This document shows, one piece after another, positions 304 to 52,335 of a DNA stretch of 64,000 nt; positions within the stretch are counted from its first letter, which is position 1; every line of letters starts with the position of its first letter. The notes below the pieces were generated by a model. The model saw nothing but the letters and a program-made list of their open reading frames with translations, was not told where the DNA came from and did not search any database. Made by a program: the position numbers and the translations under genes. Where the stretch lies: assembly GCA_041650835.1 (NCBI GenBank), contig JBAZKL010000001.1, positions 765,617 to 829,616 of the forward strand, written 5' to 3'. The stretch is from Candidatus Omnitrophota bacterium (lineage in GTDB: Bacteria > Omnitrophota > Gorgyraeia > Gygaellales > Profunditerraquicolaceae).

Positions 304-329
304 ATCGCGGAGATCTTTTCTATTCTGTC

Positions 330-4300: not shown

Positions 4301-4399
4301 CTATCTGAAAGACAAAAGCTATCGTGTCTTCATTTTGCCTTTGGGAGGCGCACTCAGACTGCCAGGCAATATCAAAACCTTCAGTTCTTCGCTCCATGA

Positions 4400-5000: not shown

Positions 5001-6399
5001 ACGCTTAAACTCAATGCCTTCTAACCCGCTGTAAGCAGCCCTGTACCGGGCTATCTCTCTCTTGCCGTATTTTACCGCGAAATCACCTTTACAGGGGGGA
5101 GCGGTAAAAGTTTTTCCCAACTGCCTGAATTCATTTCCCATCGCGCGTAAGAATTCATCGGCCATAATTTCCCTTCGGCGCATATCATCCAGCCTCGGTT
5201 GCGAGATCACCGCGGAAGCCGCTTCCCTTACTTCCTTGAAACCCAATTCCATATGACAGCCGGAGAATAGACTGATGATCTGCGCCTCAGAAAGTATTGA
5301 TCCGTCTTTAATCCGGGATATTAAGATCATTTTATCTTCAAAGATACCGCGAGATTTACGATCATCACCCCTCGGACAAAGGCGGATATCATAAAATTTG
5401 TCCAGATACGATAAATAAAACCTCGCCGCGTGCCCGAAAGAAAAGTAACCGGGGAAGTTATTATAACTAACCAGCTTTTCCTGATACGGATTCAAGGCGC
5501 GCATCTCTGAGATATCATCGATAATGGCATTAAGATCATGCAGCACAACCTCCTCCCGCAGGGCTTCGTCAAATATTATGGTATTCTGTTGGATCAACGA
5601 CTGGCGGATCCTTTCTTCCAACTGCGCCGTATTAATGACCTGTTCCACTGTTACCTTAATACGCACCTTACCGGAGATCTGTCTTTCAACCATACTCCTG
5701 ACCAGTTCTATTCTTTCATGATAAATCTCCGCCCAGTATCTCCCGCGGCCGGTATTCTTACTAAAAATATGATATGCCGCCTGCAAAGTATTTCCTTTTA
5801 CCATGATATCGCCGTAACCGGCGATGCTGCGGCCCTGGACAAAAACATCAATAAAGACACACCTCGATTTGAACAAGTACCACGTAATCTCTTTATCTTT
5901 TCCTAACCTGGCAGCGGCGATGAGTGAAGCCTGAAGAAGTAATTCCGGCCCATAAGCTCCCAGAACAGCCAGATTTCTTTTCTGAAGCTCCTCATTCAAT
6001 TTCTTTAATACGGCTTTCGGGCTGTACAAGGAAAATAACCGGGCTAAAGGAGTATGCAAAAGGACGCGCTTCAACAACCCGAAGGTAAATGCAAATGATT
6101 TAATCGAAGCTGAGCCGCTTAACGGTGATGGACCATTCCGGTCCGTAAGTACTATTTTATTTGAAGTGACTAAATCGGAAACAGCTTGATTAAACCGGGA
6201 GGGAATTCCGGGGATCGCCGCTAAATCGCGGATATGAGAAATAACAGGCTCTCCCTTGTCGTGCGCAGCCGATAAAACCTTTGCAAAAAGCGCCCTTAAT
6301 TCCGCGTCGCTTAAGACCCTGGACACAACCGGATCAATAAATATGGTCAACAGGCGATTGACCCTTTGCGGATCATTTGCCTGCTCTATTTTCTCACTC

Positions 6400-9300
6400 A
6401 AGCTCTCCAGACACTCCTGCGTATCTCCGCAAACAAACCAGCTTTTAACGGTGTCAGCGACCGTTTGAGCCTTGAGCCCGTTGATCTGATGGATGCGGGC
6501 TCTTTTATCAACAAGCAGGTCCTCGACGGCTTCCCAGACGCGCGGCTCCAACACGATATTTCTCTGGGACAAGAAACCGCGCAGCCAGCCGGGAATGCTA
6601 TTAATGTCTTCGATATTGCCTCCCACGTAGAAATAGGGACGGGGAGCGCTCATCGCCGAGATCAGGTCTGCCAGCGAAAGGCAAAGCGCGGCTGAATTTA
6701 AAACATCATTTCCGTTGCACATCTGTGGCCGATGATGGAACTGGATAAGCGTTTCCACAAAAGGAGTTAATTCGATCCCCATCTCCTTAACTCCCATAAA
6801 CGGCGGCGTAGTATGATGCTTCTGCACAAATAACCGCTGGTTCGCGGATAAGTCGCCCGGGAAATTAACCAGCATCAACACTTCCCTGTTATGTATCTTC
6901 TCAATATCATGGAGCAGGCCTGCGATCCGTATCATCGATTCCCACCGGCCTAATCCGAGGCGCTGGGCTAAATACCCGGCAAGGTCGGCAACATCATTCC
7001 CATGGCTTAAGGTATGCCGCGCGCCGGTGACCGGCAACAAATGCTCGCGCACCAGACGCCTTACCCCGGCAGGCGACTGCACGTCTGTTCTTAAGAAGCG
7101 GGGATAATCTTTCATCCCTATAGGAGATGCCGCGCTGTCATTACCACTCGGCAGTTCCGCGGGTGAGGCTCCCCGACGCGGCATCCTCCCGGTTTCTAAG
7201 GCACTAAGCTGAACATCGGCATGTTGGGCATGCCCCCCCCTTAGACTGGAGCTTGCCTTTATTGAAGAGGCCAGATCATGCATACGCTTAAACATGGTCC
7301 TTACGTCATTACCGAGCAGCCGCGTGCGCTTCCCCCCGCCCCCGTTCATCCGGGGCCCTTTAAAATTCTTCAAATTCACTTCTCCTTTACGGTTCAGGAA
7401 ATGTAATTCTATCGCCGTATCGATAACCTGCCGCGCGAAAAGCCCTACAGCCTGCCGGAATATCCGCTGATAATCTTCATCAACGATCGCATTAAAATCA
7501 ATCGTATCAATTACCTGAGGAATAAAAACATTAAGCGTAGAAAACATGGTTTTCTGACGGAAATCCTTATCATGTTCAACGCCCGCCAGCGTCTGCAAAT
7601 TATGGATCCTATCGGCGATCTTGATCAACCGGGCGATCATGGCCAGCTCTCCGGCGGCAGAACAAAGCCTGAACAAATACCCCGCTTCGTCAGCCTGGCC
7701 GTCAACTTTGCGTTTGGTGAGCAGATCGACGATCGTATAAATATCTTCGCCGAATATCTTGCGCAGCTCTGCGTCGCTAATATCCTTATCTTCGATCGTA
7801 TCATGCAGTAACGCAGCCAGAATGATCTTCTCTAATAAAGCCTCATCGCGGATATCAAAATAGTTTGCCGCGATTATCGCCACATCAAGCGGGTGCATCA
7901 TATACGAACTTTTCTTATCTTTACGCGATTCACCCAGGTGGCGCCTGGCGATGATCTTGAGCGCCTGCCTGAAACGCCGCACGGCGGCATCTTTAAAAGT
8001 AACAGGTATCTTTCTCAGTAAATATTCCACCAGCCAATCGACCATTTCAGACTGATACATCGACAGGTCGGGAATGTAGTGGAGTTGTTTTTTGAGGTCC
8101 TGCATAACACGCTCCGCGTCAGCGCAGCTTCGGCCGGGGACCTCAAGCTGCATAATAAAGCTCATACGCTGATGATACTGCGAGAACGTTGGCGTCATGA
8201 ACGACTGGATATTAATTCCTTTTTCCCGAAGTATCCGGGTGACCATTAATAATTGGGCGGGTTGATGAGGGATAGTGAACCTCAAGAGCCAGTTTCGCCG
8301 CGGCAGATCGTCTCGCAGGACATCTTGCCAATCTTCGATACGCTTCAACTCCTTAATGATCGCGCGCATAGTATCTTTTTCTACCGTCTCCAATGAAACA
8401 CTTAACTCTTTCGGGCGCTTATTATGCAAATATTCCAACCATCCCACAAAAGCCTTGTCGTCGATAGCCTGCAAGACATCATCAAGGAGCCCAACGCGGC
8501 CATGCCTGAAACGCAAGGTAACCACCCGCCGCCACATGCGCCCTACTAATAGCCGCTCTCCATACTGAACGGTTATCGGCTCCTTCTGCAACGAAACCTC
8601 CTGTTTTTGAGCGCGCTGATCATTTACCGGCGAGCTCACCCTGCGGGCGGCAATGTTTTCCCTGCAAGAGGCGTTCTCCGCTTCATGCCCCTTAGGATTA
8701 CTGATACTGATATAAACATCAAATCCTTTATTACGATAGTGCATCCCGAGCCGGTCAAAGGCCCAGTTCAGATGAGAAACAGGCACATCATTTTCTTTCA
8801 GGAAGAGCTTAAATTCTCCCAGGGTAAAACGGACGGTAAAGCCGCCTTGATTCCAGGATTTGCGCTCGCACAAACGCTTATTATCTTTAAATGGGTCTCG
8901 TTTATAATAATACTTCTTTACAAAATGATTGATCCTTCCCATTAACCCGCTTCCGTCATACTCGGCAAAAAACACGATATTCTTAATATTCCTCAATATC
9001 TCTTCATCCTTGTTTAACGGCTCCTGCCTCAAGAACTTCTCATGCGCGCTGCTGATCAGCCCGAAAACTGAAACTCTCGTCTTATAACCGGTTATTTGCC
9101 GGCTGAGATGCTCCAACCTGCCTAAATGTTTGAATTCAAATATTGTTTTACAGCCGCACCCCTGCCCATCGCACTCTTTTTTATCGCCGCAGGCGATATA
9201 CACCGGGTTCACCGCTTCCAAGCCTAAGGGATGGTCCTTAAAATCGAGCACATCGATAGTATCCTTAAATACAAAAGTAAACTTATGCACTCCGGATATC

Positions 9301-9850
9301 TCCCCTAAGACCCCTTTTAACATACACAAGTGGTCCGCGTAATAGTTCTCGCGGCTTTTTTCATGATAATCCGGCGCTTCATCCTGAAAATCCTTGAACT
9401 CCCAGAAATGTTCAAGGGTATTCTTTACCAGATCAACGAGGGTTTTACAGCAAACCGGCTCATTATAATGGATGGCCCATACCCCTTCCGACAGCAGTTG
9501 GTCGATCTTGGTGACAAAAACACCCAGGTCGGCTTTTTTCTCTGCAGGGATACATATTACCCAATCAGGGATAGAGGCCAGCCCTTCTAAGAACACCCAG
9601 AACTCTTCGGTGGTATGCGCCACGCGCGCCAGGCCCAGGATAAGGCTCAACACCCTCCCCTTTGAAACGCCAAGCTGCGCGAATTTCGGGACGATCGTAC
9701 GAAAAATATGCGCCTGCATCTTCCTGCCAAGAGATAGACCGCATCCATTTCTTATATCTCCCCCGTTATATACAAGCGCGAACAGCCGTAACAGGTCTTC
9801 TTTATCCAAAGCCTTATTTAACTCTAAGAAACCCTCCTTGTTGGGATAAT
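6400..9850 (-). CDS. Large multidomain signalling protein: Cys-rich N-terminal region, ACT domain (about 7980-8240), RelA/SpoT-type HD (p)ppGpp-hydrolase domain (about 7560-7905), then a second HD phosphohydrolase domain (about 6900-7030). Frameshifts at about 7862 and 7800.
   Basis: Coordinate-checked frame f0 is open from 9840 down to 7862. ACT: LLMVTRILREKGINIQSFMTPTFSQYHQRMSFIMQLEV. RelA/SpoT HD: YMMHPLDVAIIAANY, [frameshift], FDIRDEALLEKIILAALLHD, [frameshift], TIEDKDISDAELRKIFGEDIYTIVDLLTKRK...LIKIADRIHNLQTL. Downstream HD: RHTLSHGNDVADLAGYLAQRLGLGRWESMIRIAGLLHDIE. No in-frame stop between the HD domains on line-by-line check. Confidence 0.5.
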
Positions 9851-9899
9851 CATAGCGCTCTAAAGAAGCTATGATCTCGTTACGCTCCCGGTCAGGCAG

Positions 9900-10679
9900 C
9901 TTCAGCATAAAGATCAAATCACCGCGATATACTTTTGATCTCTTATCGTCAAATGAAATTGCTTCACGAATGAACTTCCCGTGAATAAAATGGCGGATGA
10001 TGAATGAAAGCAGGCTGGCATTGTGGCGCTCCTTTAAAGGCAATACTATTACATTCTTGAATTGCGCGCTTAAGGCGAAAATACCGTTTTCCCGGGAAAA
10101 CGCGTAGGTAAAATTGAACTTAGCTCCTGCTGGCAAAAGGTTTCCCCAGACCTTTCTTTTTTCCAGCAGGTCGAGTGCCGCGGACAATGGATTCACGATA
10201 TCCCTGCGGCGTTTTTCCGCCAATATCCTGCCGTCCTCAACGTATCCGCATAACGGAAAGTTCACGGCTGTTGCTGAAACCGCCGAAGACGCTGCAGGCG
10301 CGGCACTCGCCGCCGCTTGACGGGGAACAACCACTCCTAAACTCTTTAAGAACGCCTGGTCCTCTGAAGTTAAGATATTACTGCGTGCCTGCGGGACGCC
10401 CATAGGCGGCATATAGGATTTCAAATTCCTTCTGCAAAAACTGATTACTTCTTCACTATACTCCTTGACCTGATGCCGCAACTCATGGGTGACATAAGAA
10501 GGGCTCCGAGAGCCATTACCAAACCTAATGACCCAATAGCTTAAACCAAATTGCCGCATTGCTTCTTCCAGGCCGCTATGCTCTTTATCTGACGGAACAT
10601 ACTGATTAAGGAATAATTGGACCATTTCCGAACCTGCTTTATCAAAATGACCGATAAGCAGCGTAACGATCCTATACAT
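9900..10679 (-). CDS. HExxH-motif protein, putative Zn-metallopeptidase-like. Start ATG at 10677-10679; 3' end uncertain.
   Basis: Reverse translation from 10679 gives MYRIVTLLIGHFDKAGSEMVQLFLNQYVPSDKEHSGLEEAMRQFGLSYWVIRFGNGSRSPSYVTHELRHQVKEY (HELRH). Confidence 0.3.
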
Positions 10680-13600
10680 TCGCTGCTGGAACCAAACGAC
10701 CTCTTTATTGACCTTGTTTGATCTTTTTTCCCGGAGAAGCTGCTTGATCTTCTCTTTTAAATCTTCAACTTCTTTCTGTATCAATTTTTCAAATTCGCCG
10801 AAGGCATGCGCTTTTTTGCCTTTAAAAGGGGCAGGCAGATCGTTACTGGTTTCCAGGAATCGCGCTATTTCCGCCAATTCAGCGCGCTGCGCTGCGTGTC
10901 CTGCCTCACCCCTTACATCCAGGATGACCGGCGCGCCTTTACGGTCAGTCAGGCTCATCCCTTTTTTGTCGCATATGAACACAAACACGGGTTTTCCTGC
11001 CACATACACTATCCTGGCTGAGGCATGAGCTAAATTTACCGAAAGGCTGCCGGCGATATGCTTTAAACGCCACAGATAATTCCCGGCGCTCAAGCGCTGG
11101 TCTTTATGGATTATCGTTTCAAGGACAAAAGTATTGAACGCAAGCGCCTCAAGTACTTCAGCCAGGTGCATCTTAAAAACAGTTAAGATCTGCTCGCTCT
11201 TGAAGCTGAAAGGATAATCCGGCAGCGAGTAAATGATATAAAGCCTTTTATCAATACCGGAAAGCGTTCTTGCCGCCACCGCGAAGACCTTTCCGTTCTT
11301 ATTCTTACGGATATCATATATCGTCAGACGATGGAAAGCGCGGGCTTTCCCGAAATTCATCACCGTTTGGGAATCAATATTGAGCTTTCCCGCCTGGTCA
11401 AGAGGATAATTATGGATCTGGTATTCGTCGTTGAGGCGGCAGACATCTTTATGGCTTAATTTTACGGCCGTTGTTGTAATTTGATTGGTCGGCATATGCA
11501 CGATCCGCATATACGCGCGGTCCAGACCGCTCTCCAATGAAGAGACTCTCCAGACCAACCCGTCTTTTACCAGCACCTCAACTTTTTCATAAGGGTGATA
11601 ATAGAACCGCGACCAGGAAGGCTCATAGCCCGTCCCATCGCTATGCGGGCGCCCGCCGCCTATGCTTAATTCCCCCAATTTCCCTAAATAAGCCTGCAGG
11701 GTCACATCGGAAAATTTACTGAATACTTCCCGGAATATCTGCCCCAAATGGACCACTTCAACCTCCCCGGTTTTATTGTTGACCGCGGGCAGGAATTCAA
11801 GCGAGGTATGTGTCTTAGAGAAAAATATCCTTACCGGGATACCGTCTTTCATTTCTAATAAATAATTCGATGCCCCATACAAAGAAGCATCAAGCCTCGC
11901 CCATTTCCTGCCTATCTTTAATTCTCCGCTCTGCGGCACCTGCCCCCTGATGACAATATGCCCTAACGCTTTAATTTGTTTATAATACTGCGGCAACGCC
12001 TTTCTTTCGGCATAACGGACATGCTGGCTGCCGTCAAAAGCAACGGCAAGAATGAATTTAAAGATGTTTTCGCGCAAAAGTACGGCACCCGCCTGAATGC
12101 CTCCGTCACTTTCCGGCCGCAGCATTTTTTCCAAAGCAATGATCACGCCGCTATCTTGCCGGTCGAGCAGCCGGATGATCGCTTCACTTTCCAGCCTCCC
12201 CCTGATCGCGCTTTTCGTAAGCCATCGGGCATTATTGCCGTCAAGCAGCAGCTTCAATATACGAGGGCTCTCAATGACATTCCTTACTAAAGCCTGGTCT
12301 TCTGAGGAAATACATTTGTTTATGCGAGCCATCTCCAGCAATTGATGCAAATATCCTTCAGCGCTGCCGTTTTTCTCTTCTTTAATCAGCCGGTTGACCG
12401 TCGCGTACAAGAAGCGCTTAAACGCGCCCAACTCCTGGTCTTCCCCGCTGTCCGTTAACTCCCGCTGCCGCAGCGCGCCGAATAATTGATAATAAAAGGC
12501 CTCGAAAGCTTCAGCATGCTCATTCTTCCCGGCATGCGCCTTTATCCGCTCACAAATACAGGACAGGGGAACATTTTTTCCCTTAATCTTTTGATCTTTA
12601 CTTGATATTATTTCAAGCGCCTGCACAGGCGATGAAGCACCTACCTGCTTAAGCTCAAACTTAAAATGCTCACCCTCATCAAGTTTCTCCAATTGCGTAT
12701 CAAAAAGCGGTGACGATGCTTTTTTAGCCGCAAGCAACACCCCGCGCATATCGACTATGGCATAGGCATACTGATCAAGCAGTAAATCCATTTCATCCCA
12801 GGGGACTACCAGGCCGCGCTCCCTGCCTTGCATGTCCCAGCTGCGCACCCCTATCCCGTCGGCCGTCGCGATAATATTCGAATCCATATCCCAACTGAGC
12901 TGACGGTCGATCAATAAAAGCCTGAAATCAACATTATGATATGCCGCGAGCAAAGCATCGCGGATCCTTGCAGCGTATTTCTGCACATCCTGGCGGTAAG
13001 AAAGCACTAAGCGCGCTTTAGCTTTTACGGCTATTTGAGAGAGATGCGTATCTATACTTTCTGCCTTGGCCAAAGCATAAGCAGCGTCATCGGCAGGCGG
13101 GGGACAGGATTTCTCTAAAGGCGAATGAAGGTGCTGATGGCGTATAAAACCGGAAAGTGAATCCCCTGCCCATCCTGCCCCGATTACTCCCATGCAATTC
13201 GTGCACCGGCTCGTCGTCAAAATAGCGCCGTCCGTGATCGATTTTCTGAATTCGCAATTATTAGGCGGCAAGAGGCTGTTTTGAGACGAACCATAAGCCA
13301 CATTTACAATAAGGCGGTCTTCGAAACGCTGCTCGGTCTTTCGCCAAAGGGAATAACCTGCATACTCATAAAATCTCTTAGTGATTTGCAGGGACTCGGT
13401 GAGCGCTTTATGCGCGCCGTTATTCCCCTGAGATTGTCCCACAGAAGAAACCGTCAAAGCAGGACTGCCCGCCTTATTATTGTTCCTGCTTAAAATAGGC
13501 GCGACCAGATTAGGCAAAGAACGCCCAATACCTGCCAGTTCCTGTTCGATAAATCCTTTCTTTACGGGGCCCAAAAGAGGCCCGCCGCAATCAACGCCGG

Positions 13601-15499
13601 CTTCCCGCTGCTCGCTCAGCGCGGAAGAACCCGGCTTTATCGCTAAAGCCTCTTTGCGTATACATAAAAAGGGAACGCCATCAAGGGCAAGCTCAACTAC
13701 CGGTATTTCAGCCTGATAAACAGTACTCCTTAAAATCGAAATGATCTCTATCATCTCTTCCAAAGGCCTTACTAAATCATGAGATCCTCTCACCCCTAAT
13801 TTCATGATAAGGAATAAGCTTTCAAACATCGTCCCTAAATCAACTTCCTGATAGGGATCCCCGCAAGAAAACGTATGAAAGATGACCCGCACGGCAATAT
13901 CGGGGGCCTTATACCGCAACTCACTGATCGTTTGTGCGCTCATTTTCATAAAAGCGCAAAAATCGTCATATTCGGACCGCTCCAATACCGCATGAGATAC
14001 CAGTCTTTCCTTAAAATCCCTTATTTCATTTATCCAGGAACCGCAAAGAGTATCGAGCATCCTTTGCTTACGTTCATCCAAAGCAATCTCTTTTATATCC
14101 AGCGGGCTTGCCGCCGTTTTATCAAAGACACAATCATTCAAACGCCGCAGTTGCTCATACGAAGCTTTTTCCTGGCTGGCATATAACGCCTGCTCCTCAA
14201 GAGATAATCCCTGTAAAATAGCATTCATTACCTCCCCGGGGGTATTCTTTATATACAGAGAAGTCTTCGGATAAGGGGCATTTGCCTGAAAAGCAGGAGG
14301 GGCTTTTGTCTTAAAATATAATTCGATATGGGTAAACCACTTTTCATAGAATCTCCTTTGTTTCATCGGAAGTAAACGGTTCTTGCGGGCGGATAAATAA
14401 GTAAAAATGTCTTCTCCCCGATACGTCATGACGAGCAGCACTAAAATATCCTGCTGCAGCCTGATCTCCGGGATCACGCGTTTCTTTTGCAGATACGGGA
14501 TGATCACAAATCTTTGTAATTCACGCTGCAGCCTGACCAGGGTATTTATTTCCTCCGGATTGTGAAATCCGATAATGATACTCCCGGTAAAAGCAAGCAT
14601 CTGCTGCTTCTTGAGATTTTCCAGTTCATACTTATACCCCACCGCTTCCTTCACGACGTAATTGCCCAGCTTTTCATGGGAGAATTTCACGAAATATTTA
14701 ACAATGTCCCTGACGCCGCGCACTAAAAACAAGCCCAATTCCTGGACTTTCATCTGAACATAAGAAGTCAAGCTCCCGCCCAAGGTAATTCTTCCCGAAT
14801 AATCCAAGGGGCCGATATATATTCTATCCGCGCAAAAAACAGCCAGGCCGCCGTTAAAACAATCCGAGTGATCCGGGCCCGCATGATCGCTCTTTGCTGT
14901 TTTGAGCCCGCGCAAAGCAATATAACCATTCAAAAGCTGCAATTCAAAAGTCTTAATACTGCCGGGTAATCCTCCTAAGCCCTCTAAGGGAAGCTCTTTA
15001 AGTATTGATTCCTGATCTTTATTATCGGCGATCAAGGCAAATACGCCTAAATTCCCGGTTTTTTTACCGCGCAAATGGCCGTAACCGTAGCCGCGGGAAT
15101 CCGGGTTCAATAATACCGCATCTTCATCGTGCATCAACGCGTCCAGGAATTGTTCCGCGGGAATATTTAAATCCAAATGCTCAAGGGCTTTTAAGAAACA
15201 CATCCCATTGCCTCTGCCCTTATTCGAAACGACAAATACCGGGACATCTTTTCTCCACAAAATGCCTTTTGATGCCTGGAGATAACGGCTCAAAACTTGC
15301 GCGTTTTTCCGGTTATCGCCGGTCATAATAAAGATCATGTCCGCTGACGGATCTGCTCCATTGATCTCAATATCTAACGTATCATTGATCCGGCGATAGC
15401 TTTCACAAAGCATTTCCTCCTGGGGCACCTCATCGAGTAAAGAGCCCTGGCGGGCGAGCGATCTTAATTTTCGTTCTAATATATCCAACCGTTTCAATC

Positions 15500-17050
15500 T
15501 TGAGAGATAATAAATATCGAGCTTCATCGCCAGGAGATAGACTGCCCAGGTCAATAAAACAGGAGAAAACGCGATCATGATCGGCTTTGAGAAACTTATA
15601 AAATCAAGCTGCTCCGGGCGGGCCTGCATCATTAAATACACAAGCCAGCTAAATGACATGGTAGTAGACAACCTGCGCAGCATGCTAAAAAGCCCCCACC
15701 ATATTTCAATACCCAACTCCGATTTCCTCCAGCCGGAGAAAATATATTTAAGGTACCTCTCTAATTTTTCCTTGATCTGAGGCTTGTCATATAAACCAGC
15801 GACCAGGGTATTGCCCAAAGGCAGCAGTTTTTCAACGACCAATTGCCTGAGTTTTGACCTACTCGTCCAGCCTTCTCTGGTGAGCCCGAAGAGCGTGCGC
15901 GGCGCTGAAAGGATAGCGGTTATCTCCCAAAAACTACTCGGCGGGCGCATATATCCTGATACTTTCTGGCAATTATTGCTCTCATGCATACTATAGCTGT
16001 ATATTAAGGAATACCGGGCTATGCGGATTATCTCAACGCATTTGACAAAAACGCTTTTTCTTAAATTCTCTGAAACCGCGCCATTCTTGAGCATGCGGTA
16101 AAGTTTATACGAAACTTGCCTGGCAGCTTCTCCCATTGCCCCATGGATCTTAGCCATTGATTCCCGTGCCGGCTTATCCATATTCACATAGAAAGGCGTT
16201 ATCTGATTGATCTGGAACGCCGGATTTAAGATGCCGTCGAGGTCGCCTTCATCAGTGAGGCGCTCGGCATTGAAAACGTTTTCACAATTGAGCAATAAAG
16301 GAGCGAGCGTTTCCTGAATGGTCCTGTTCTCCGCCCTTAAGCCCACATCCGTCATGGCTTCGATCTCGGTCGAGCTAAACTCCTTGCTCCTGCTTTTTGA
16401 CCAGCGTTTATAGATCACAAAATACGCGTAGGCGATCCCTAAGGCGCAGGCGATAAAAGAATACTGCTGCTGAACAAATCCCATCAACGCCGGGAAAAGA
16501 TTACGGAAAGCTTCCAGGTAATAGTATTCTTCGTCGGAAATAACGGCAAAGACAAGCGAAGGAAGACAAAGCAAAGCGGCAGCGAAAGAGAGAACGCGGG
16601 CATTAAATACCGCAAGCGGCGAAGCTGCAGCTTTAGCCCCATGCCCCATGACATCAGCGCCAACAAAAGGGTTATCCGAGAAGCTAAAAACATAAAGGCT
16701 CCTCTCCTCATCAAGCGTTACGGTTGAATTGTTATTTATTCTTTTCTCCCGCAAAGGCCTGTTGACGGACCTGGCGAATCGCAGCAAGTACTCTTTTTCC
16801 TCAAGCCCCAGATCAAACAAGAAATAACTGTCCAAAGCCGCTACCCTGAATATTTCAGCATACAAGCCTTCTATATCTTTTTCCAGAAATCCATAGGTTG
16901 CCCATGAAAGCAGGAAAGCTAATTTCACGCTTTTATCTTTCAAAGGGATACCTCCGAATTTCATTCTGGCATCTCCCAGGATAAACCTTATCTGATCAGC
17001 GCTTAAGCCGTTCTCTTTCGCGCGTAAAACAGCTTTTAAGATATTTTCCC
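15500..17050 (-). CDS. Polytopic membrane protein, family not recognised.
   Basis: Reverse translation of 16440-16700 gives ...VMGHGAKAAASPLAVFNARVLSFAAALLCLPSLVFAVISDEEYYYLEAFRNLFPALMGFVQQQYSFIACAL, consecutive hydrophobic helices. The listed minus ORF 16484-16714 is the out-of-frame shadow of this region. Confidence 0.3.
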
Positions 17051-20000
17051 CCCATTTATCCTGTCCTATAAGGAGCATATTTTTACTTTGAATGGTAGTA
17101 CGGACAAAGCTGCTGAACCAGTCAATAGTCACCCTTGATTCTCCGCACAGGGCATCAAGAATGATAAGTTCTCCATTTCCCCTGCACGCATATTCTCTTA
17201 ACGCTCTTTCTATGATTTCCTGGAATAAGATTGTCTTATACCACAAGAATTCCCCTTGCCAGGAATATCCGCGGACCCCTCTTGAAGGGCAGTCATATTC
17301 CATGTATCGAGGCCGGATAACGCCGTATTCCTTTAACAGGAGATCGACCACCGCAGGAGCAACGCCAACAAGCATAAAAACTGAAAGCAACAAATATTCA
17401 TCTTCTTCGCTCAATGAGGGGATATTCCGGTCGAATATCCGCCGTAAGAGCGCAATGATACTTTTTTCCCGGGTCTTGATATCTTTAAAATTGTGCAAAT
17501 AGCTCTTAAGATTAAAATAATTATTTATAAGAGCGTCCCTATCAATATGAGCGCCTGGCGTTAACTCCGCGAAATCTAAAAGCGCTTCAAGTAGCGCGTC
17601 AATTTCAGCCGGCCTGCCCGGCACCAGAGGAGAAGCGGCAAATTGGCGGATCTTTTCCCGTGCCGGGTTGAGCCGGGAAAAGAATAAATCACGATCTCCA
17701 TACCGGCCATCCATACTGAGCAGATTGTTTCCACTATCAGCGAATCCGTAACCCTTCCCGAATATCCATTTCAGGATAGTCCACGCTTTCGGGCCGCAAG
17801 GGACAACGTGGAATTTATCCACACCTGCCAGCAGTAATTCAACTAACACAATATTAATAAGCAGATAATGAAGGTCGCGGTCCCGATACTGCGGCTGGAT
17901 CTCTAAACCCTGCATAAAGGATTCCCGGTTTTCCGCTAAAACCATCGCTTCGATCTTGCCGATCAGCTCATTGGTAGTATCATCGAGAAGCTTAAACTGC
18001 TTTTTCGAGAACATCTCTTCGCGCAGGGCGGTAATATTGCTTATTTCAAGGCGGGCATAGCTCAATACATTTTTATCCTTCAAAACAACTGCCTGCGCTA
18101 ACGCAATGACGCCTCCGGCTCCCTCTGAAAGATCACCGGAAAGATCTTTCTTCAACCAATAGTAATCATTCCCTAATAAGCGGCCTGCCGTTACGGGAGT
18201 TTCGCTCACCGCGGAAGACGACACTTTCTTTGCTATTTCCGTCATCTGAGCGTCTGAAATAGCCGCTGTTTCTTTTTCAATAACACCTTCGGTTTTAAGG
18301 ACCTCGAGGATCCGGCTTTCTTCAACCCGAACGTAAACATACCCGGGAAATACCGCGACATCGTATGGCTCAACCTTTCTGTCTTTTCTCTTGGAATGCT
18401 TTTTCCGTAACGGCAGGTACACTTCAAAACCCTTCCTGCGTAAGCGCTCGGCAACAACCCTCTCGCTTTTGGTATTTACGCGCACCATGAGCCACTGTAG
18501 GCCGGATTGCGGCGAGCTGCACCTTAATGCGTTGACAGCTTCACGTAACGGCCTGTCAAAAAGAATACCCGGAAACATTAACTCGGATTTAACATGAATG
18601 GAAAAATAATCTCCCAAGGCAGCAGCTGTCCCCTTTACACAACCAAAATTGCTTCCAGGGAAACCGAACTCACCGATAAGGTCGATCTGACGCACCCCTA
18701 ACAGATCATGCAGACAATATATCAAAGCCCTCCAACCCACAAGATCACTGCTCCCCGCTCTCCTCACACGCAAGAGATGAGGCTGAGGGCCTATATTATT
18801 GGTCGAAACTACTACAAAGCCCGGTTTAAGCCCTCCGGCATACGGCTGCATACCGATATCGTCCTCCTGTGAATGGCCAATGGCTAGAAAAACAGTATCG
18901 CTAAGGTTTGAAAGATAATTACTGACCCGCGAAGCATACTCCCGGCATAAAATATTAACGGTATCGATGAAAATACCCTTTTGTTTAAAAGTGATCCTTC
19001 CTTTTTCCCAAGCCTCATACAATTCTTCGTCGTATCCATAGATAATATCCGCAGGATGGCGCTGTGAAAAACCGGGATGAAGCCAATATACGATCCGGCC
19101 GCCGAGGGTCGCTATTTTTTCTTTCTGAATATCCGGCTGTTCTATTAAATCGCTCAAGAACTTACCTCCTAATAATTTAACCATGCCCATACCATAACTG
19201 TCCGTTAATACCGGCTGTGTAATAATAGGAGAGGCAGTTAAAGCAAAATTGATCCCCGGGATAACCAGGTCTTTCGGCACTTCCGCCGGCAGCCCTGAGC
19301 GCAACAAGTTTATTTCGATCATTTTTCTCTTGAGCTTCTCCGCCAGATCGCGCGGCCCATCAACTAATATTCCCGCGATGCCCAGACGGCCAGCGCTATA
19401 CAGGTCAAACTCTTTGCGGTCACCGACAGAAATAACATGACGATTATGCTCGCCTGTGACCTTTTTAAAACGCTCGCATATTATCTGGAACATCAAGGTA
19501 TCCGGCTTGCCCTTTCCCGCCTCCTGCTGAGTTATAACAAAATCCATATACCCTTTTAACCGTAAACGCTCAAGGATTTTATCGGTCAGGATCAGCCCAT
19601 TATTGGTGGCGACGGCCAGATAACATCCTTGTTGACGCAGGTCACCGAAGAGGTTCCACAATACCGAGGAAGACTTCAGTTCCTTCATATCGGCATTCGT
19701 CGCGATATAATAGTAATATTCATCCAGAGACAGCCCCAAAGATCTCAACGCCGCCGTCATACTGCCGTCATTATTTTTCCTGCGGCCTCCCAGCTCCGCC
19801 AGAGTTATTCCGAAAGAAGCAGCAAACGAATGGCTCAAGCGCACGATAGAACGCGTCAACGCAGGGCAACAGTAGAGCGTCTGGTCCATATCTAAAATAC
19901 ACAGCCGTATACTCAGGGATGAAGACGCGATATTCCCGGCCGCCGTAACAATACTATCGGCAATCGGGACTAGCATTCCCATATCCACATCCAGGTGGCC

Positions 20001-20609
20001 GAAGATATAGCGGGCGGCCTTGATTAATTCCTTATCTTCAACGGTTAGGCCATTTTTTTGAAGACCGGCCCGGTATTGTTGTATATAGGCGCTGACAGCT
20101 GCGGGATAATCATAATTCTTATTCTCTTCCATTGAAGCGACCGCGGATAAAAACGCTTTCAGCACAAGCATAAAATCATATTCATCATACGCGTTATAAA
20201 GCGATATTAACCATCCCCAAAGAGAAATCAGTTTACGAGTCTCAAAACCATTGCCAGAAACATTGCTCCTTAATTCACTGCTGATCAATTGGTATAAATC
20301 ATCCTTAATCCCTTCCCTCCTGCCTATAGCGCTCTCGAACATCTCAAGGCGGCAGGCGGAAAGATACTCAAGCGACGAGGAAGAAGATGTCTTCAATAAA
20401 CCGGCTTGGATCTCTCTGATCCAGGAAGCCGCGCCGGTAGCTCGGAGCAGGTCATTAATCGCTTCCCGGCCGGTCAAAACAGCTTGCTCATCACCGTATT
20501 GTTCGCCGCAGACAAGCCCTGCTTCTGTAATATAACTATGGGCGTAAATAGATTTTGCATGGTAGAACTCAAGGCTCTGACCGCAGATAATAGAACCCAC
20601 AGGCCTGCG

Positions 20610-21075
20610 CAGGTCTAAAAGCTTTTCCCGGTCGCCTCCGCACGGGAAGCGATAAAGAATATTAAAGTCATGCCTGTCCCAGCCCGGGTGTGAATGCGTT
20701 TCAAAAACGATCCTGCCTGCTTCCAAGACAAAACGGTCATAGCGGGGTGTGATAGACAAAAAGTCCCTGCCGAATATCGCGTCGATACCGTCACTTTCAA
20801 TGGTCTGTTTTAAAAACGCTTCAGCCTGATAATCACCATAGTTTTTCTTACCGTTGAAGAATCTGAATGTCCGCGGAGCGATGATATCGTTTACCAAAAC
20901 CATATCTTTGCCGGCGGATACCTCCCCTACGCCTAAAGACGCTATTTCAAAATCGCGGTAGCACTCTCCAATAGCAATGATCTGTAAGATTTCCAGTTTC
21001 TTATGGGCTTCCTGGTTGAAAAACACATAAGAATCGCCTAATCCCGGCCATCCTGCTTTTATAGTTACCGCCATG
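20610..21075 (-). CDS. Uncharacterised protein N-terminus. Start ATG at 21072-21074; the gene continues below 20610.
   Basis: Reverse translation gives MAVTIKAGWPGLGDSYVFFNQEAHKKLEILQIIAIGECYRDFEIASLGVGEVSAGKDMVLVNDII... It follows a stop at about 21155-21157 that ends the upstream gene. Confidence 0.3.
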
Positions 21076-21157
21076 GTAATCGGTGAAAAAAGCGATGCCG
21101 GCGCCGCTCCCCGATGGGCATTAAAAAACTGTTCAAAGGGATATACCGGACTTAATT

Positions 21158-23100
21158 TACTGGCCAGTTCTGAGGGGACTCTCGATGATTGAGTGATGCA
21201 AGAAGAAGCCCCAACGGCGACCCGATTGACAGGCAATACCTTCAATTGCCTTCCTGCGAATAAATCAACAAGCTCCAATTCAGCCAGTTTCTCACCTGCT
21301 TTCAACCGCTCAAGCAATACCTTCTGTTCTTCGTTCAAGGCCTCTGCCAGTTGACCGAGTATCCTGACATCAGCTTTTCTTCCCACATGCCTGATATAGA
21401 AAGAAGCGGCATAGCCAAACGATGTATATCCGGCAAAATCATGGTATGAAACCATCGCTTTTTCTTCATCACTCAAACCCAAACCGCAGTTCATCTTCTG
21501 CGTCATAGGCGTTACCAGGTCATTCCAAAGCCCGGGATGCTGCTTTTCAACAGGAAGTTGAGAGGATAAATACGCTTTCACCCTTTCTGCAAGCTGCTCT
21601 TCGTTAATTATCTGATGATACTCAACCTTTGCTCCCTCAAAAATGCCGACTCCCATGGCTTCCCAGATCAGAGGCAACCTCTCTAAATAAACATCCGCCC
21701 AAACAGCCGCTTTACCTTGCTTTTTATTAAGGATGTGGAACGCAAGGTATAAAGCGATGAGTCCTTCCCATTCTCTATTGATCAAGCCATAACCCTCTAT
21801 CGCGCGGCGCTCGCGGTCGACAAATACCTCTAAGCCGGTTTCAAATAAATACCAGGATAGATAACCCTGAGGGCCAAGGCGCTCCAGCCGAAGAAGGCCG
21901 GAATGAGGCAGCCGCGAGCCGGCCCAATAATAACCGCTCAAATTAAGGTTACGGCAATTAAGTTCTAACTCCAATCTTAAAAGCACCTCTGAAGGCGTCA
22001 AGGTATCTATCGCGGAGCTTGCCGAATTATTTTTACCCCTGAGAGATACAGAATACGGCCTGTACACGGATGTAACCGCGCTTAAATTTATAGTTCCTAC
22101 CGGCCTCTGCCAACTCTCTATGAGAACCAACGCTCCCAGAGGAGAAGAACCTCTCTTCCCTGAGTATAAATACGTGTCTATTTCATTCAATCTGTTGATT
22201 ATAAGTACCGGCGTGCCCAATACGGCCCAATTAAACAACCGTGAAGCATCTTCTACCTGTTCGCGGATACAGCCGTGTGAGCCCCGGTACAGGCTATTTT
22301 CACGCTTCTCTAAAAGAGGAGCGGCGATCGTGCCTTGATGTAACCATATACGACTCCCATCTAATTGCAATCCCCAATACATCGGCGCGGGAAGCCCCTC
22401 AGGCGTATTATATGAACTTGATCTATGCCAGCGGTCAAAGCGGGTGATCCTGTGCCAGCCTAAGGGAGTACTTCCGGGATTTTCTCCGATACCTACCTGG
22501 AACGAACGCGCGAGTTTTCCCCGCGAATACATTCCCAGGAAAGAAACCGGGAACGGAAACCCTCTTCCTTCAACATTTTTATGGTAAATAAATTTCACGA
22601 TAAGGACAAATTTCTGATGGCTTTTTATTTTATTAATGACCCGGGGCAACGGAGTGTAGTGCAGATAATCCGGGATATACGCGGGGACGACGAGCGGCTT
22701 TCTTCCGAGGCGTTCAGATACAAAACGCCAATCAATGCCGCAGAGCCTGCCGATGACCCTGGAAGATTCATCAATATTTAAGTTGCCTTTTCTCCGGCTG
22801 ATATCCTGAAGAGTAAAGATACCTGATTGCAAACCTGATTTCTGGCGGGTTAAAACCTCTGTTTTGACTTGAGCGGGCTTAGCTTCGGCAGGTACAATAA
22901 CCTGATACGGAGGAATAAGAATATTTCGAATATACGCCGGAGGAGCGCATGCGTTTAAAAAGCTTAGAATAAAAACAAGAATATAAGGTAAATACCCCCG
23001 CTCAAGAATAGTGTCTGATTTTTCAAGACGTGATGATGCAACGACTTTTCCACAGCTGTAGGTACCCTTTAAGCCTCCCCTATGGTTATGGATAACTACT
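21158..23100 (-). CDS. L,D-transpeptidase (YkuD-domain) protein with a long C-terminal extension.
   Basis: Reverse translation around 22274-22295 gives SLYRGSHGCIREQVEDASRLF. SHGCIR is the YkuD catalytic motif. Translation ends ...RVPFRTGQ with a TAA at about 21155. Confidence 0.4.
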
Positions 23101-23900
23101 CTATTTTCCGGCCCGAGCGGCGGGAAAGTATTGCCGTCAAACCGGCCGGAGAGCTTATGCATTGATAATAAAGCAGTGACGCTATCCTCAAGATCTTCCC
23201 GAGAAGTATCATTATGTATGACTATATCTGAAAACGAAACGTATGTCTCTATCCCAGGCAAAGAAGCACTGACATCTTGGAGCCACTGCCTGGTCTGCTC
23301 AGAAGACCATCCATATTGTTCAGCCTGTCTTTGTATAAGCCCTTTACATCTTTTCTTATCATTGCGCATAATAGACCAAACCGTATCCAGGGCAAGGCCA
23401 TGTTTGAGTTCAAAAAGCACTGATGATTCAATAAAAACATATCGCGCATTTTCTCTTAATGCATCGATGATCTTTTCATAGAGCCTTTCTTGTAAACCCG
23501 TACTTCTCAAAAAGTGATAAATCCTCGATGCCAGGTTATTCTTACGTAACAATAAAGCGACCCTACCTGCCGTAGAATTACTCAGGAAAGGAACATTCTT
23601 CCGCGCCATACTATCAATACGCAGCCCATCAACACTGATCGCATAGTATCCCTGCCTTTCCAGAAACTGAGCTACCGTTGTCTTACCGGCTCCCAGAGGA
23701 CCGGTGATACCAACAATTGTTGCGCCGCTTTGCTGTTTAAGGCAGCTTATCTGGCCCTTAAAAAATTCTGACCGGCGGGCGCTTAATAAACTGTTAACGA
23801 TACTGCGTCCCAGCGAATAACAGGTATTCAAAACGGGAGAACTTCCGGGCTCTCCGGAAAAACGTTTATCTTTCTCTTGCTCCTGCCTCATGATCAACCG
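23100..23900 (-). CDS. P-loop nucleotide/nucleoside kinase (dephospho-CoA kinase-like).
   Basis: Reverse translation of 23641-23720 gives ATIVGITGPLGAGKTTVAQFLERQGYYAISVDGL (Walker A GxxGxGKT). Confidence 0.4.
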
Positions 23901-25399
23901 GACAGCCAAAGAAGACGAAGCAGGCGTTGCATCGTTATCCTCCCCCGCATTCGCCGACATAAATAACTCCATCATTTGTTTCGGGCTTATCCCGTCGGCA
24001 ATATCCAGGCCGGGGACGATCACTCTGACAACGGGGAAATTCAATTCAGTCCTGGTCAAATCGATATAATAAGGACCATAACCATTCTCTACTAAAAGCC
24101 GCTCTATCACGCTCAGGTCACCTTTGACGTTTCCCGTCGAGTAATTAGGGAGCCCTGCTTCTTCGAGCAGTTGTATCGCCAAAGGGAACTCGCTTTTAAT
24201 ATTTTCTTCGCGTATACGATAGACGTGATGGAGCTTCACGTTCAATTCGCAGAGCGCCCTTAACAGGGCGATTCTTCCGTTCAAATGGCTGCCGCTTCCT
24301 CCCAGGATCCTCCCGTCATCGGTCTTAACAAACGCGCGGTATGCCGGCACTCCCAGCTCCGTAGTGATATCAAGGACCTGAATATGCATGTCCCTTTCGG
24401 CTGCCAGCTTCACTATTGCCCCTATCCTGCTTCCTTCCTGGGGCACAATGGTAAAACAGCGTTCAGGGGAATACAACAAGTTTGTATCTCCGTAGCGCTC
24501 GATCACCTCCAAGAGCCCGTACAACTTAGCTTCATTCATGGTATTGCCCGAGGCCATGCCGTTAGAGCTCATCGCGGAATACGAAATAACAGGCTCATCG
24601 AAATTAGTACAAAAGAAAGCGATCTGCGCCGGCACCAATACTTCTTCAAAACCGCCAGGGCTTAAACGCAAACCCTTAACCCAGGAGAGAGGCTGATCAT
24701 CATAGGGGATCTGCAAGTTCAACGTATTGGGATCTAATACCTTAAAACCTTTTTCTTCCAGGAAACTGCGTCTTCCCCAGGCGAACGTATGCACCTGGTT
24801 AAAGCCATCAGAGAAATTCCTTGAAGAACCGGCGGCCGCGCTGTAACACTCGATCATCTCCATAAAACCGGACACAGTCGATTCTTCTCTGGTCAACCCT
24901 CGGCCCGCGCTGGCCATCGTTGCCTTCAGGCGGTAATGCTGGCGCAGCTGCTTGACACGCAGGACCAACTGCCAGTGTATGCCAATAAAATACGTATTAT
25001 TAAAACCAAATCCTATGATCGGTTCATCGTTCAATAATCCCTCAAAATCCAAAGCCATGATCCGTTTGAGCGTTTCTTCAAGCGGCTTCTCTCTCAAAGA
25101 TATCCCTGTTTCAATATCTGCCTCCTCAACACAAGAGATTGTATCCTTGACGTGCACGGCATTACGTCTCCTTACTATTTCCGCGGCTAATAAATGCGGC
25201 ATGACCGGCAGTTCGGTCACACCAAGCTCCAAAAGCGTTTTATGCGTAAGCCGGCTCTGGCTGATCAAACGTTTGAGCTTCTTTTCCGCCAGCCCGACTT
25301 CCATCATGGTCATCGCCCGTATATTCGGGAGCGGATGCTTCCGGTACAGATCAAGGCACGACTCCACCCCGATCCTTTCAACTAATCCCTTCATAGCCT

Positions 25400-27300
25400 C
25401 CAGTATATAGTCGGCTTCCTTTGATTCAGCCAGTACGCCATAGAGTGACGGGAAGGGATCGGCAACGAATCTTCCCAACAATTCCTCCAGCACTTTGTGG
25501 CCTCCTTCTTCCACAAGCTGCTCTAAGTATTTGATCATAAATATATCGTTTGGATGCCGGCGCAGATGCATGATAACTTCGTCAAGGCTTAAAGGGACCT
25601 CCGGCTGCACAACATAATGCCCTCTGCCTTGCGCTAATGAATGGCTGCCTAACTCAGGCTTCTGGGTATAAACAATCGCTTCTTCATCGCGGCTCCCGAG
25701 AGCTTCCTTTGCCAAAGGCTGTTCCAAGATGACCTGCGGGCAGGTAACAGGATTCTCACTTGCCTGGTAAAATGCCTGCTTGAATAAAGCCAAGGCCGCT
25801 TCAAATGCCCTCAGGAAATCGTCCCTGAGATCATCGGCCTCGATTGCGCTGATCCGTAAGCGGTAGACCGGCTCCAAGAAAAAGGGAAGAAAAGCTTCCT
25901 GAGTGGAAATAACGCCTTTGGTGACAAAAGAAGCGCTTAACAGTTTACCGGAAAGCGTTTGTACATTCTGGATACGGTCGGCCATCTTGATCAGCTGGGC
26001 AATCAAACCCTCAACACCTTCAGCCTTAGCCAATTTTGCGAAATATCCTATCTCATCGATACTTCCGTTCTGCGCGCGCTTTGTCAACAAATCGACGATC
26101 GTATAGATCTGCCTGCCAAACTGAGCGAGGAGCTCTTCATCAGTGATATCCTTCTCTTCAAGGCTATCATGAAGGATAGCGGCAATGATAATAATATTTC
26201 TGATGTCACTTCTTACATTTGCGAGGCCGCAATCAACCATCAGCATTTTCACTATATCAAGGATATGAGAAAAATAGGGATTGACCCTGTCCTTACGCGA
26301 TTGGCTGGCATGATAATGAGCGACAACCATTAACGCTTTTCTTATTTCATCCCTTTCTTCCAGGCTAAAAACAATGCCGCAATCCTGCCCCATGTTACAA
26401 ATTATTTTGTCGATCAGATCGCGTCTTTCCAGAGTGTATTTCCCTTTCCCGATCCTTTGGTCCAGCCGGGCGAACAAATAATTAAAAGATATATCTTCCG
26501 GCAGTTCCACTTCAAAAAGAAACCGGGTTTGCGCTTCCGAAAAGCCTTCTATATCGCTGATCCGGGGAGTGAAGAATGCGTTGATATTGATCGCGTGCAT
26601 GGCTAAAAATCCGGTCACCTTAAGCAATGCCTCCACCCTATGGGGAATGCTGAATTCCAGGATCCACCTATTATTATTGCCGGTTCCCGGGCCACAGATC
26701 CCATTATGCGTGTCTTTTATCCGGCTAAGCGCATCTGTTATGCTCGATTCATCTTCAGCTGTTTTGGTCACAACTCCCAAATTGAAAACATGCGGAGAGA
26801 GATGCTGTTTCCATTCAATAAAATAAAATTCTCCCTTATTGCGGATTGCCGCCAATATATCATTGAGCAATCCGGGACGGTTATGCAGGAACTTCAGGCT
26901 AAAATCCTGCAGCCGTAAACCGCCTGCTTCTTTAACCTCTGAAATCGAATCAAGACAGACATGTAGTGATTCAGCCTCTAACCCGGACGATGAAACTACG
27001 CTATATATAGGTAAAGGCATTGGGCTGGAAGCAACCCATAAATAAGGTGTTTTATAAAGTCTTTCGTAACGCCTGATAAAACCCCAAACTTCATCGTTGG
27101 TATAAACCAATGACTGGCGCAAAAAGAGATGCTTGAAAAATACCACCCCTTGCGGCAACGGATCGCGAATACGAAGTACCCGGTCAGTTCCCGCAATATA
27201 GCGGCACGCAACAAACCAGATTAAACCGCTCCCCACTGAAGACATCACCGGATTACCTCTAAATTGATTCCAGGGAGCAGTTTCAACGAAATCAACATTA
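25400..27300 (-). CDS. Second ACT + RelA/SpoT-type HD domain protein, paralog of the 7200-9850 protein.
   Basis: Reverse strand of 26078-26186 encodes IIIIAAILHDSLEEKDITDEELLAQFGRQIYTIVDLLTKR...LIKMADRIQNVQTL. Upstream is an ACT-like FLAMHAININAFFTPRISDIEGFSEAQTRFLFEVELPED. Confidence 0.45.
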
Positions 27301-29350: not shown

Positions 29351-29399
29351 ACGACGGCTCATATTCTTGAGGCGCCTCTAAGCCAAGCAGATTTAAAAG

Positions 29400-41600: not shown

Positions 41601-41649
41601 AACAGGGCTGCCGGACCGCCTGGCACCGCCGCGCCGCTTCTTCACCCGG

Positions 41650-43780: not shown

Positions 43781-43789
43781 ACGCGCCCC

Positions 43790-45840: not shown

Positions 45841-45848
45841 CCCCGGCC

Positions 45849-48740: not shown

Positions 48741-48845
48741 GCGCAGAAGCATATTTTCAGCGACCAATTCAGCTGTCGCAGGGAAATCTAATTGCGCCAA
48801 CGGCGCTGACGCGATAAACACGGCCGTTGCGGTGATAAGGTCCCC

Positions 48846-48938: not shown

Positions 48939-48959
48939 GGAAGGTAAACCAAATCGCTT

Positions 48960-52300: not shown

Positions 52301-52335
52301 GGCTGCCGGCTAAGACGGGAAGGACCTGATTATTG

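Follow-up and report, generated by a model that had tools for sequence, protein, structure and literature searches.

Which products are encoded by two distant stretches of an Omnitrophota contig that both resemble alarmone hydrolases, and are they proteins in their own right? We examined this question in a window of 64,000 nucleotides (the whole stretch of DNA that was analysed; contig JBAZKL010000001.1, assembly GCA_041650835.1, Candidatus Omnitrophota bacterium). An earlier note on this DNA had described two paralogous proteins at 7200-9850 and 25400-27300, each with an ACT domain followed by a RelA/SpoT-type HD domain and lacking a synthetase domain. We found instead that both are stretches of one giant coding sequence, and that each contains one copy of a module of approximately 460 residues with a predicted ACT-ACT-HD architecture. 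The two modules are paralogous, and we consider it fairly probable that in each of them a tandem ACT region regulates a (p)ppGpp hydrolase of the RelA/SpoT/Mesh1 type. Unless otherwise stated, coordinates below are window positions, residue numbers are those of the giant open reading frame (ORF), and all the features are on the minus strand.

Two ACT-ACT-HD modules in a single giant ORF

The minus strand contains a single stop-free frame of 63,996 nt (21,332 codons) that is open at both ends of the window, according to a six-frame stop count, while the remaining two minus frames contain 1255 and 1591 stops. This giant ORF spans 1..64000, where codon k (counted from 0) corresponds to window positions 63998-3k..63996-3k. 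Since it runs off both window ends, a listing of ORFs omits it. The motifs quoted in the earlier note are all in this frame, and no stop codon separates the two loci described there. The short plus-strand ORFs (up to 294 aa) were rejected as genes, being antisense shadows of the stop-free minus frame, and an alternative genetic code was dropped as well, as that frame contains no stop codon of any kind.

A family hidden Markov model (HMM) detected exactly two copies of the module in the 64-kb window. Module A occupies 7257..8624 (residues 18459-18914, flanked by VSSPV and ASSSL; HMM match 18446-18919, E 7e-186), and its paralogue, module B, occupies 25650..27017 (residues 12328-12783; HMM match 12324-12783, E 5e-149). 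The paralogy proposed for the two segments holds, with 33% identity over 381 aa (BLASTP, E 7e-50). The range 7200-9850 is not one unit, since the part from 8640 to 9850 belongs to a different, unannotated module.

Relatives were recovered by a genome scan that used an alignment of modules A and B and one database homologue as query. The nearest relative was a Candidatus Omnitrophota metagenome-assembled genome (MAG; locus L004), in which the orthologue of module A was 80% identical at the amino-acid level, followed by a bin labelled Planctomycetales (L005, 79%). Module A is under purifying selection, as judged from the aligned sequences (dN/dS 0.11–0.14 against L004 and L005). Module B had an orthologue in locus L006 (51% identity over 648 aa); its synonymous sites were saturated, and the dN/dS figure covers module A alone.

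The module directly upstream of A (8640-10277, residues 17908-18453) had no family match. It stays beside the ACT-ACT-HD unit in L004, L005 and the remoter L007 (31% identity over 978 aa spanning both), and this kept adjacency hints at a functional link.

The HD domains are of the RelA/SpoT/Mesh1 type

Both HD domains exceeded the gathering score of the Pfam HD_4 model (PF13328, 27.2 bits), with 48.0 bits in module A (7524..7952) and 37.2 bits in module B (25950..26336). The NCBIfam model of the RelA/SpoT family, TIGR00691, matched module A with E 1.3e-18 (model positions 1-143) and module B with E 3.3e-14 (positions 1-123), both matches being confined to the hydrolase portion at the N-terminus of the model. 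In a PDB sequence search (phmmer), the best matches were SpoT of A. baumannii (7qps/7qpr), Drosophila Mesh1 (3nqw) and human Mesh1, Rel of several bacteria, and small alarmone hydrolases (SAHs). The AlphaFold model of module A had a mean predicted local distance difference test score (pLDDT) of 76.8, with the HD part mostly at 80–97. In Foldseek, the top match of this model was RelH (7qoc), followed by SAH (6yvc), Mesh1 (5vxa) and then Rel/SpoT hydrolase domains; all 32 matches at E<=0.001 were SAH, Rel, SpoT or Mesh1. The sequence matches of both modules and the predicted fold of module A agree in supporting a Rel/SpoT/Mesh1-type rather than a GlnD-type assignment for the HD domains, as had been proposed, and no HMM match was of another type.

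GlnD, too, contains one HD and two ACT domains. By this likeness, the modules could be seen as GlnD/GlnE-type units, similar to the uridylyl-removing enzyme. We regard this as hardly conceivable, given that neither module has a nucleotidyltransferase domain in its vicinity, that the HMM, PDB and fold matches are all to RelA/SpoT, SAH or Mesh1, and that the order of the domains is ACT-ACT-HD and not HD-ACT-ACT.

The catalytic set of module A is complete (R18692, H18702, H18732-D18733, E18736-D18737, D18796 and N18800). Module B has the corresponding R12568, H12578, H12610-D12611, D12674 and N12678, with EE (E12614-E12615) replacing the ED diad. The R, the H, the HD pair, the first E of the diad, and the D and N of the 'ADRxxN' motif were invariant both among 16 aligned sequences (RelA/SpoT homologues, RSHs, and family members) and among 13 Omnitrophota members. 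The His/Asp ligands of the 2H2D metal-binding motif (His ... His-Asp ... Asp), which is used as a definition in PMC11554896, are conserved in both modules. The EE diad is common to module B and its orthologue in L006, while ED is kept in module A. The motifs read HP...AALLHDTIEDKD...IADRIHNLQTL in module A and SH...AAILHDSLEEKD...MADRIQNVQTL in module B; those originally quoted for both copies are indeed present in both, except that 'IEDK' is true of A only.

Both modules have a Lys (LLTKRK in A, LLTKRA in B) at the position of Asp91 of Mesh1, according to the alignment with Drosophila Mesh1. We take Asp91 to be located in 'VTDDK' of the human MESH1 sequence. This residue is described as the determinant of NADPH phosphatase activity (PMC11554896), so the Lys in its place speaks for pyrophosphohydrolase rather than NADPH phosphatase activity.

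Two predicted ACT units precede each HD domain

The architecture predicted by structural modelling is ACT-ACT-HD, with two ACT units per module rather than one. In module B, the AlphaFold 2 model of the N-terminal 196 residues (m700ca086fdbc; pLDDT 75.6, predicted template modelling score 0.75) contained two beta-alpha-beta-beta-alpha(-beta) units, ACT1 at 26724-26915 and ACT2 at 26427-26669 (span 26427..26915). Foldseek related this pair to tandem-ACT regulatory domains (8y1j, 3l76, 9d2s, SerB2 and 1u8s; template modelling score about 0.53), which belong to threonine deaminase, aspartate kinase, SerB2 and GcvR. In module A, the first ACT-like unit (8319..8522) contains FRHGRVGLLDDVLQAI, which is similar to the ligand loop of ACT domains, and aligns to the confidently modelled ACT1 of B. 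The second unit (8052..8300; model residues 97-179) was modelled as beta-alpha-beta-beta-alpha-beta with pLDDT 80–90 and had weak Foldseek matches to ACT proteins. A Gly-containing beta1-alpha1 loop (RPGLL / RVGLL) is visible in the ACT sequence and is a candidate ligand loop.

The placement of ACT in front of HD, as initially described, is therefore borne out by the predicted fold, with two units per module and weak Pfam support, and the order is both real and unusual. Like the tandem-ACT units of IlvA (threonine deaminase), aspartate kinase, SerB2 and GcvR, those of module B form two consecutive beta-alpha-beta-beta-alpha-beta units; they differ from them in sequence (11–18% identity) and in being joined to an HD hydrolase instead of a biosynthetic enzyme.

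Predicted activity and substrate

As (p)ppGpp hydrolases under ACT control, the modules would work as follows. The HD domain would act as a Mn2+/Mg2+-dependent 3'-pyrophosphohydrolase whose substrate is (p)ppGpp or a closely related compound. The hydrolase would be turned on or off through the ACT pair, by binding of a small metabolite (an amino acid being the most plausible), by oligomerisation, or by both, as in other tandem-ACT enzymes. The EE diad of module B could alter its metal use, rate or specificity. The ligand-gated alarmone hydrolase that had been suggested is a reasonable functional reading of these predicted domains, and in such an enzyme the removal of alarmones would depend directly on the levels of metabolites. 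Functionally, each module probably corresponds to a protein of its own; it is bounded by a conserved, short SSP-type junction motif, and the same unit occurs as a stand-alone gene in other Omnitrophota.

Several observations weigh against this assignment. The Pfam ACT matches were below the gathering score of 27, both for ACT in module B (22.1 bits, E 1.3e-4, two stretches) and for ACT_4 in module A (15.4 bits, E 0.031, near the second unit), and the first ACT unit of module A had low pLDDT in the module's own model. The EE of module B breaks a diad that is called invariant and a ligand of the second metal in PMC11554896. Finally, all the stand-alone homologues that we inspected begin with a signal-peptide-like leader (K/R-rich start, hydrophobic core and AxA-like end, by eye). 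If these leaders are real export signals, the enzyme would be located outside the cytoplasm of its producer, away from the producer's own (p)ppGpp.

Some of these points would fit active hydrolases whose physiological substrate is not (p)ppGpp but (p)ppApp, pGpp, 3'-pyrophosphorylated tRNA, NADPH or another 3'-phosphorylated nucleotide, and whose site of action might even lie beyond the cytoplasm of the producer or in prey. The leaders and the non-canonical diad of module B would be in line with it, and there are precedents for other substrates: Mesh1, an RSH-type hydrolase that was among our Foldseek matches (5vxa), acts on NADPH (PMC11554896), and an SAH of P. aeruginosa degrades (p)ppGpp and (p)ppApp, according to a title cited in the same article. 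We still hold a different substrate to be unlikely, as the nearest matches in sequence and fold are bona fide (p)ppGpp hydrolases, both modules carry Lys at the Asp91 position of Mesh1, and the RelA-like synthetase module of the same ORF (see below) would be the matching source of (p)ppGpp.

Quite improbable, in our view, is that one or both modules are catalytically dead and, as in the case of RelA and its pseudo-hydrolase domain, have a regulatory or scaffold role in which they bind nucleotides or ligands. The EE in module B and its orthologue could be taken in this sense, and the giant ORF does contain one HD that is clearly degenerate, in its RelA-like module. Against it, module A keeps every catalytic residue under the low dN/dS given above, and module B keeps R, H, HD, D and N, its D-to-E replacement being conservative and preserving the carboxylate.

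A rare architecture among RelA/SpoT homologues

We examined how widespread the ACT-ACT-HD architecture is in protein collections. A word-indexed search of 5.8 billion clusters recovered one full-length homologue (P0001, 503 aa); the remaining matches were long RSH proteins or SAHs aligned over the HD part only, and module B and the giant protein itself were absent from this collection. The same search with the ACT-ACT region alone gave no match and missed even the known P0001, which is apparently a limit of the tool. When 1.84 billion cluster representatives were searched exhaustively with HMMER, there were 16,467 matches at E<=0.001 and 15 at E<=1e-30; approximately 20 of the representatives, with lengths of 480–6,022 aa, also covered the ACT-ACT region. 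By these sequence searches, the combination of tandem ACT with HD_4 is rare and so far found almost only in Omnitrophota bacteria.

The modules share with small alarmone hydrolases (C. glutamicum RelH 7qoc, P. aeruginosa SAH 6yvc, Mesh1 3nqw/5vxa) the HD_4 fold, the catalytic residues R, H, HD, ED, D and N, and the lack of a synthetase within the unit. SAHs are generally small single-domain proteins (Atkinson et al., PMC3153485), and modules A and B fall outside this definition: SAHs consist of HD only, whereas here two ACT units stand before the HD domain, the whole is embedded in an ORF that exceeds 21,000 codons, and B has EE. In the relatives, the modules are found inside proteins of 480–1150 aa with signal-peptide-like leaders.

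Long RSHs (Rel, SpoT and RelA) likewise combine a Rel-type HD domain with an ACT-type regulatory domain in one unit, in the order HD-SYNTH-TGS-helical-CC-ACT within a protein of roughly 700 aa (PMC3153485). Modules A and B depart from this layout, in which SYNTH, TGS and C-terminal regulatory domains follow the HD domain, as they are arranged ACT-ACT-HD and contain no SYNTH or TGS; the synthetase is located in another module, ~7,800 and ~13,900 residues upstream. The giant ORF, like long RSHs, does hold a pseudo-HD and a synthetase in that RelA-like module. Searching by term, we did not find tandem ACT with a hydrolase-only HD in the RSH classifications PMC3153485 and PMC7229694, and the terms 'Omnitroph' and 'additional domain' gave no match in Jimmy et al. 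2020. ACT-ACT-HD is a new architecture in the RelA/SpoT superfamily, carried by a class of giant genes that is already known.

Other nucleotide-messenger modules of the giant ORF

We found no RelA_SpoT or TGS match within or beside modules A and B, in agreement with the description of each as lacking a synthetase. The same cannot be said of the giant ORF, which contains a single SYNTH domain (RelA_SpoT at 49566-49919, residues 4694-4811; 33.4 bits against a threshold of 27). It is part of a RelA-like module (49005..51077, residues 4308-4998) that consists of a degenerate HD, in which LLTHINP replaces LLHD..ED, followed by the synthetase, and whose best PDB match was E. coli RelA residues 138-367 (E 6e-9). 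The synthetase motifs are partly altered (EVQIFS for EIQIRT; GIRAQWNEY), so the activity of this module is uncertain.

Just upstream of the RelA-like module there is a GGDEF diguanylate cyclase module (51114..51590; Pfam GGDEF, 141 bits), preceded by two hydrophobic segments at residues 3943 and 4089. A separate HD-superfamily domain is located in the module after A (6651..7004), with an HDIG-like pattern (H...LLHDIEK...HH...FHH...LADLISAM). It matched Pfam HD (25.8 bits against 22), HDOD (E 0.0075) and TIGR00277 HDIG (25.0 bits, under the cut-off of 27.6). The second HD domain that the earlier note had attached to the first locus does exist, just outside the range given for that locus, and its supposed HD-GYP character was not found: it reads FHHRPQMCNGNDV where HD-GYP proteins carry HHExxDGxGYP, and it had no GYP motif, no HD_5 match and no PDB sequence match at E<=1. 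The GGDEF module and this HDIG-like domain might form a pair for the synthesis and breakdown of cyclic di-GMP (c-di-GMP).

With the RelA-like synthetase module, the GGDEF module and the further HD in the giant ORF, the predicted synthesis and breakdown of nucleotide messengers are split over separate modules of one polypeptide. Omnitrophota giant genes thus carry split stringent-response parts, with synthetase and hydrolase in separate modules, beside c-di-GMP parts.

The giant ORF belongs to a known class of Omnitrophota genes

Scans of overlapping 5,000-residue pieces assigned at least 20 Pfam families, many of them unrelated, to the giant ORF in one frame. These included HATPase_c (two copies), starch-synthase GT5 and GT1, GGDEF, RelA_SpoT synthetase, GH77, GDE_N/GDE_C, TPR, PEP-utilizers_C, iPGM, HD_4 (two copies), YcaO, a CoaE-like P-loop, YkuD, HAD, NusG, a general HD domain and an S-adenosylmethionine methyltransferase. 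The frame was also open over the entire 11–21 kb fetched in eight relatives (L004-L008, L010, L012 and L015). Other Omnitrophota MAGs carry remoter copies, as does the complete genome of the enrichment-cultured Candidatus Velamenicoccus archaeovorus LiM (L008; NZ_CP019384.1 123197-144378).

The giant ORF is an Omnitrophota multi-enzyme giant gene, a class already described under the names 'Archaeovorins' (West-Roberts et al. 2023, bioRxiv 10.1101/2023.11.21.568195) and 'multi-enzyme metabolic clusters' (Nielsen & Lui 2026, bioRxiv 10.64898/2026.06.07.730766). As in other members, including the 39,678-aa protein of Ca. Velamenicoccus archaeovorus, more than 20,000 codons are occupied by a series of numerous unrelated enzyme domains, and the ORF is well above the 10,000 codons that we took as the lower limit for the class. 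The domains GT5, GT1, TPR, HATPase_c, GGDEF, HAD, PPDK and HD are reported for the class (both preprints and PMC10066038), and the list shared with our ORF comprises GT5, GT1, TPR, HATPase_c, GGDEF, HAD, PEP-utilising, methyltransferase and HD domains. Numerous transmembrane helices and a SecA-DEAD domain are further traits of these genes (West-Roberts 2023). A simple Kyte-Doolittle scan detected 11 hydrophobic segments along the giant ORF; SecA had no match within the window, beyond both ends of which the ORF extends. Searched by term, West-Roberts 2023, Nielsen & Lui 2026 and Seymour 2023 gave no mention of ppGpp, and none of RelA/SpoT in the passages retrieved.

Stand-alone homologues and the glycogen modules

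We examined whether the modules could be connected with the carbon-storage genes that had been proposed as their adjacent targets. The glycogen modules (GT5, GH77 and GDE; about 43,800-60,500, residues about 1,180-6,720) are found ~5,600 and ~11,700 residues upstream of the HD modules, in the same polypeptide, and are neither adjacent nor separate genes. The stand-alone versions of the module, of 480–700 aa, have other neighbours. In L001-L003 these were a PPDK-like gene and a PEP-utilizers_C gene, in L009 the stand-alone ACT-ACT-HD gene follows a Methyltransf_28 (PF02636) gene (7710-11866, locus coordinates), and L011 has a fusion of the unit with Methyltransf_28 (9827-13039, locus coordinates). 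We looked for a Methyltransf_28 homologue in the window and did not find one, and no link of glycogen genes to the HD modules was visible in the window or at the stand-alone loci. The proposed control of carbon storage does not hold in this form.

It is very improbable that the modules of our window are two independent ACT + HD genes without synthetase that regulate neighbouring carbon-storage genes. Other Omnitrophota do have stand-alone genes of the same architecture (P0001, L009 and L011), and separate polypeptides could result if the giant protein were processed at its junction motifs. At the gene level this is refuted by the continuous ORF, with no stop codon in frame and no separate ORFs, and the PPDK-like or Methyltransf_28 neighbours and the distance of thousands of residues to the glycogen modules point in the same direction.

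The leaders of the stand-alone homologues have a conserved I-L-I-Q-x-F core (L001 3998-13049; L009 4929-11866; P0001, P0040-P0047 and P0052) and matched no NCBIfam model. A conserved motif, [TDN]L[SA]P[AV][LIV][QE][IL], comes after the leader. Leader and motif were also found on the PPDK-like, PEP-utilizers_C, Methyltransf_28 and unknown neighbours, and were absent from the adjacent RecJ, PEMT, TrkH, ALAD and YggT genes. If the leaders are export signals, the target would be other than the cell's own alarmone pool. Phage-encoded SAHs provide a precedent for invaders that carry alarmone hydrolases (PMC7229694), but such a role of the modules is speculative.

A candidate junction motif between the modules

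A short motif, [AGSVC][AGS]SP[VLIMA], had 40 matches along the giant protein compared to 1.6 in composition-preserving shuffles, and its variant xSS[SA][VIL] had 19 compared to 3.6. Merged, both forms gave 59 distinct sites across the window, one every 200–800 residues. None of the 59 was inside a Pfam envelope (10.4 expected, P about 1e-5), and the intervals between sites were protein-sized (iPGM 562 aa, HAD 230, NusG 100, GGDEF 406 and ACT-ACT-HD 461). The codons of the motif vary synonymously, which indicates conservation at the peptide level and rules out a DNA-level repeat as its origin. VSSPV (8625..8639, residues 18454-18458) is immediately N-terminal to module A and is replaced by TSSPI, VSSPI, SSSPV and ESSPAV in L004, L005, L007 and L008, while ASSPM (27018..27032, residues 12323-12327) is N-terminal to module B. 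Further examples are ASSPV at 43737-43751 and GSSPL at 22137-22151.

The sites also coincide with the limits of conservation between genomes. The homology with L004, L005 and L006 (residues 7696-21251) is blockwise, with long collinear blocks of 62–84% identity, and 15 of its 22 internal block ends were within 10 residues of a motif, compared to a mean of 1.7 and a maximum of 7 in 2,000 random trials. Genomes also differ by the gain or lack of entire modules: YcaO, CoaE-like and YkuD (residues 12751-14687, about 19,940-25,745) correspond to 86 residues in L006. SSP was enriched 21-fold in the giant ORF of V. archaeovorus (25 compared to 1.2 expected, mostly x-SSP-[AS]) and 10- to 17-fold in other Omnitrophota giant ORFs (including L007 and L015), with zero occurrences in L010. 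Basic residues of a kexin-like kind were ~2-fold enriched at positions -1 and -2; this enrichment was too weak, and such a signature was set aside as a processing signal.

We consider the motif a candidate module junction or processing site. In sequence it resembles the LSP-type motif that follows the leaders of the stand-alone homologues, and most simply the giant ORFs can be read as leader-bearing genes concatenated in frame, in which each unit kept its N-terminal motif. A further step would be a bacterial polyprotein, in which the concatenated genes, with [AGS][AGS]SP[VLIA] derived from 'LSP[AV]xQI', yield a product that is cut or partitioned into some 60 protein-sized enzymes within this window, the alarmone units acting outside the producer's cytoplasm; we regard this as a doubtful proposal. 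If true, the units would include a RelA-like synthetase and two alarmone hydrolases gated by amino acids, and, with these units in or on prey cells, the stripping of (p)ppGpp would disable the stringent response of the prey. According to West-Roberts et al. (bioRxiv 10.1101/2023.11.21.568195), no information on cleavage points exists, and linkers and polyproteins were not mentioned in those portions of the giant-gene papers where the terms were searched. A motif that delimits modules, coincides with block ends and is similar to the leader motif provides the first concrete candidate cutting positions, and this by-product may matter more than the ACT-ACT-HD modules themselves.

Finally, we identified an exact direct repeat of 2,194 nt (52894-55087 and 58657-60850, spacing 5,763 nt) that covers a GT5 glycogen-synthase-like module. 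The repeated unit begins and ends at junctions in the protein (ASPL to VSSSAI), and the repeat could have arisen by duplication of the module in very recent times or be an artefact of the assembly.

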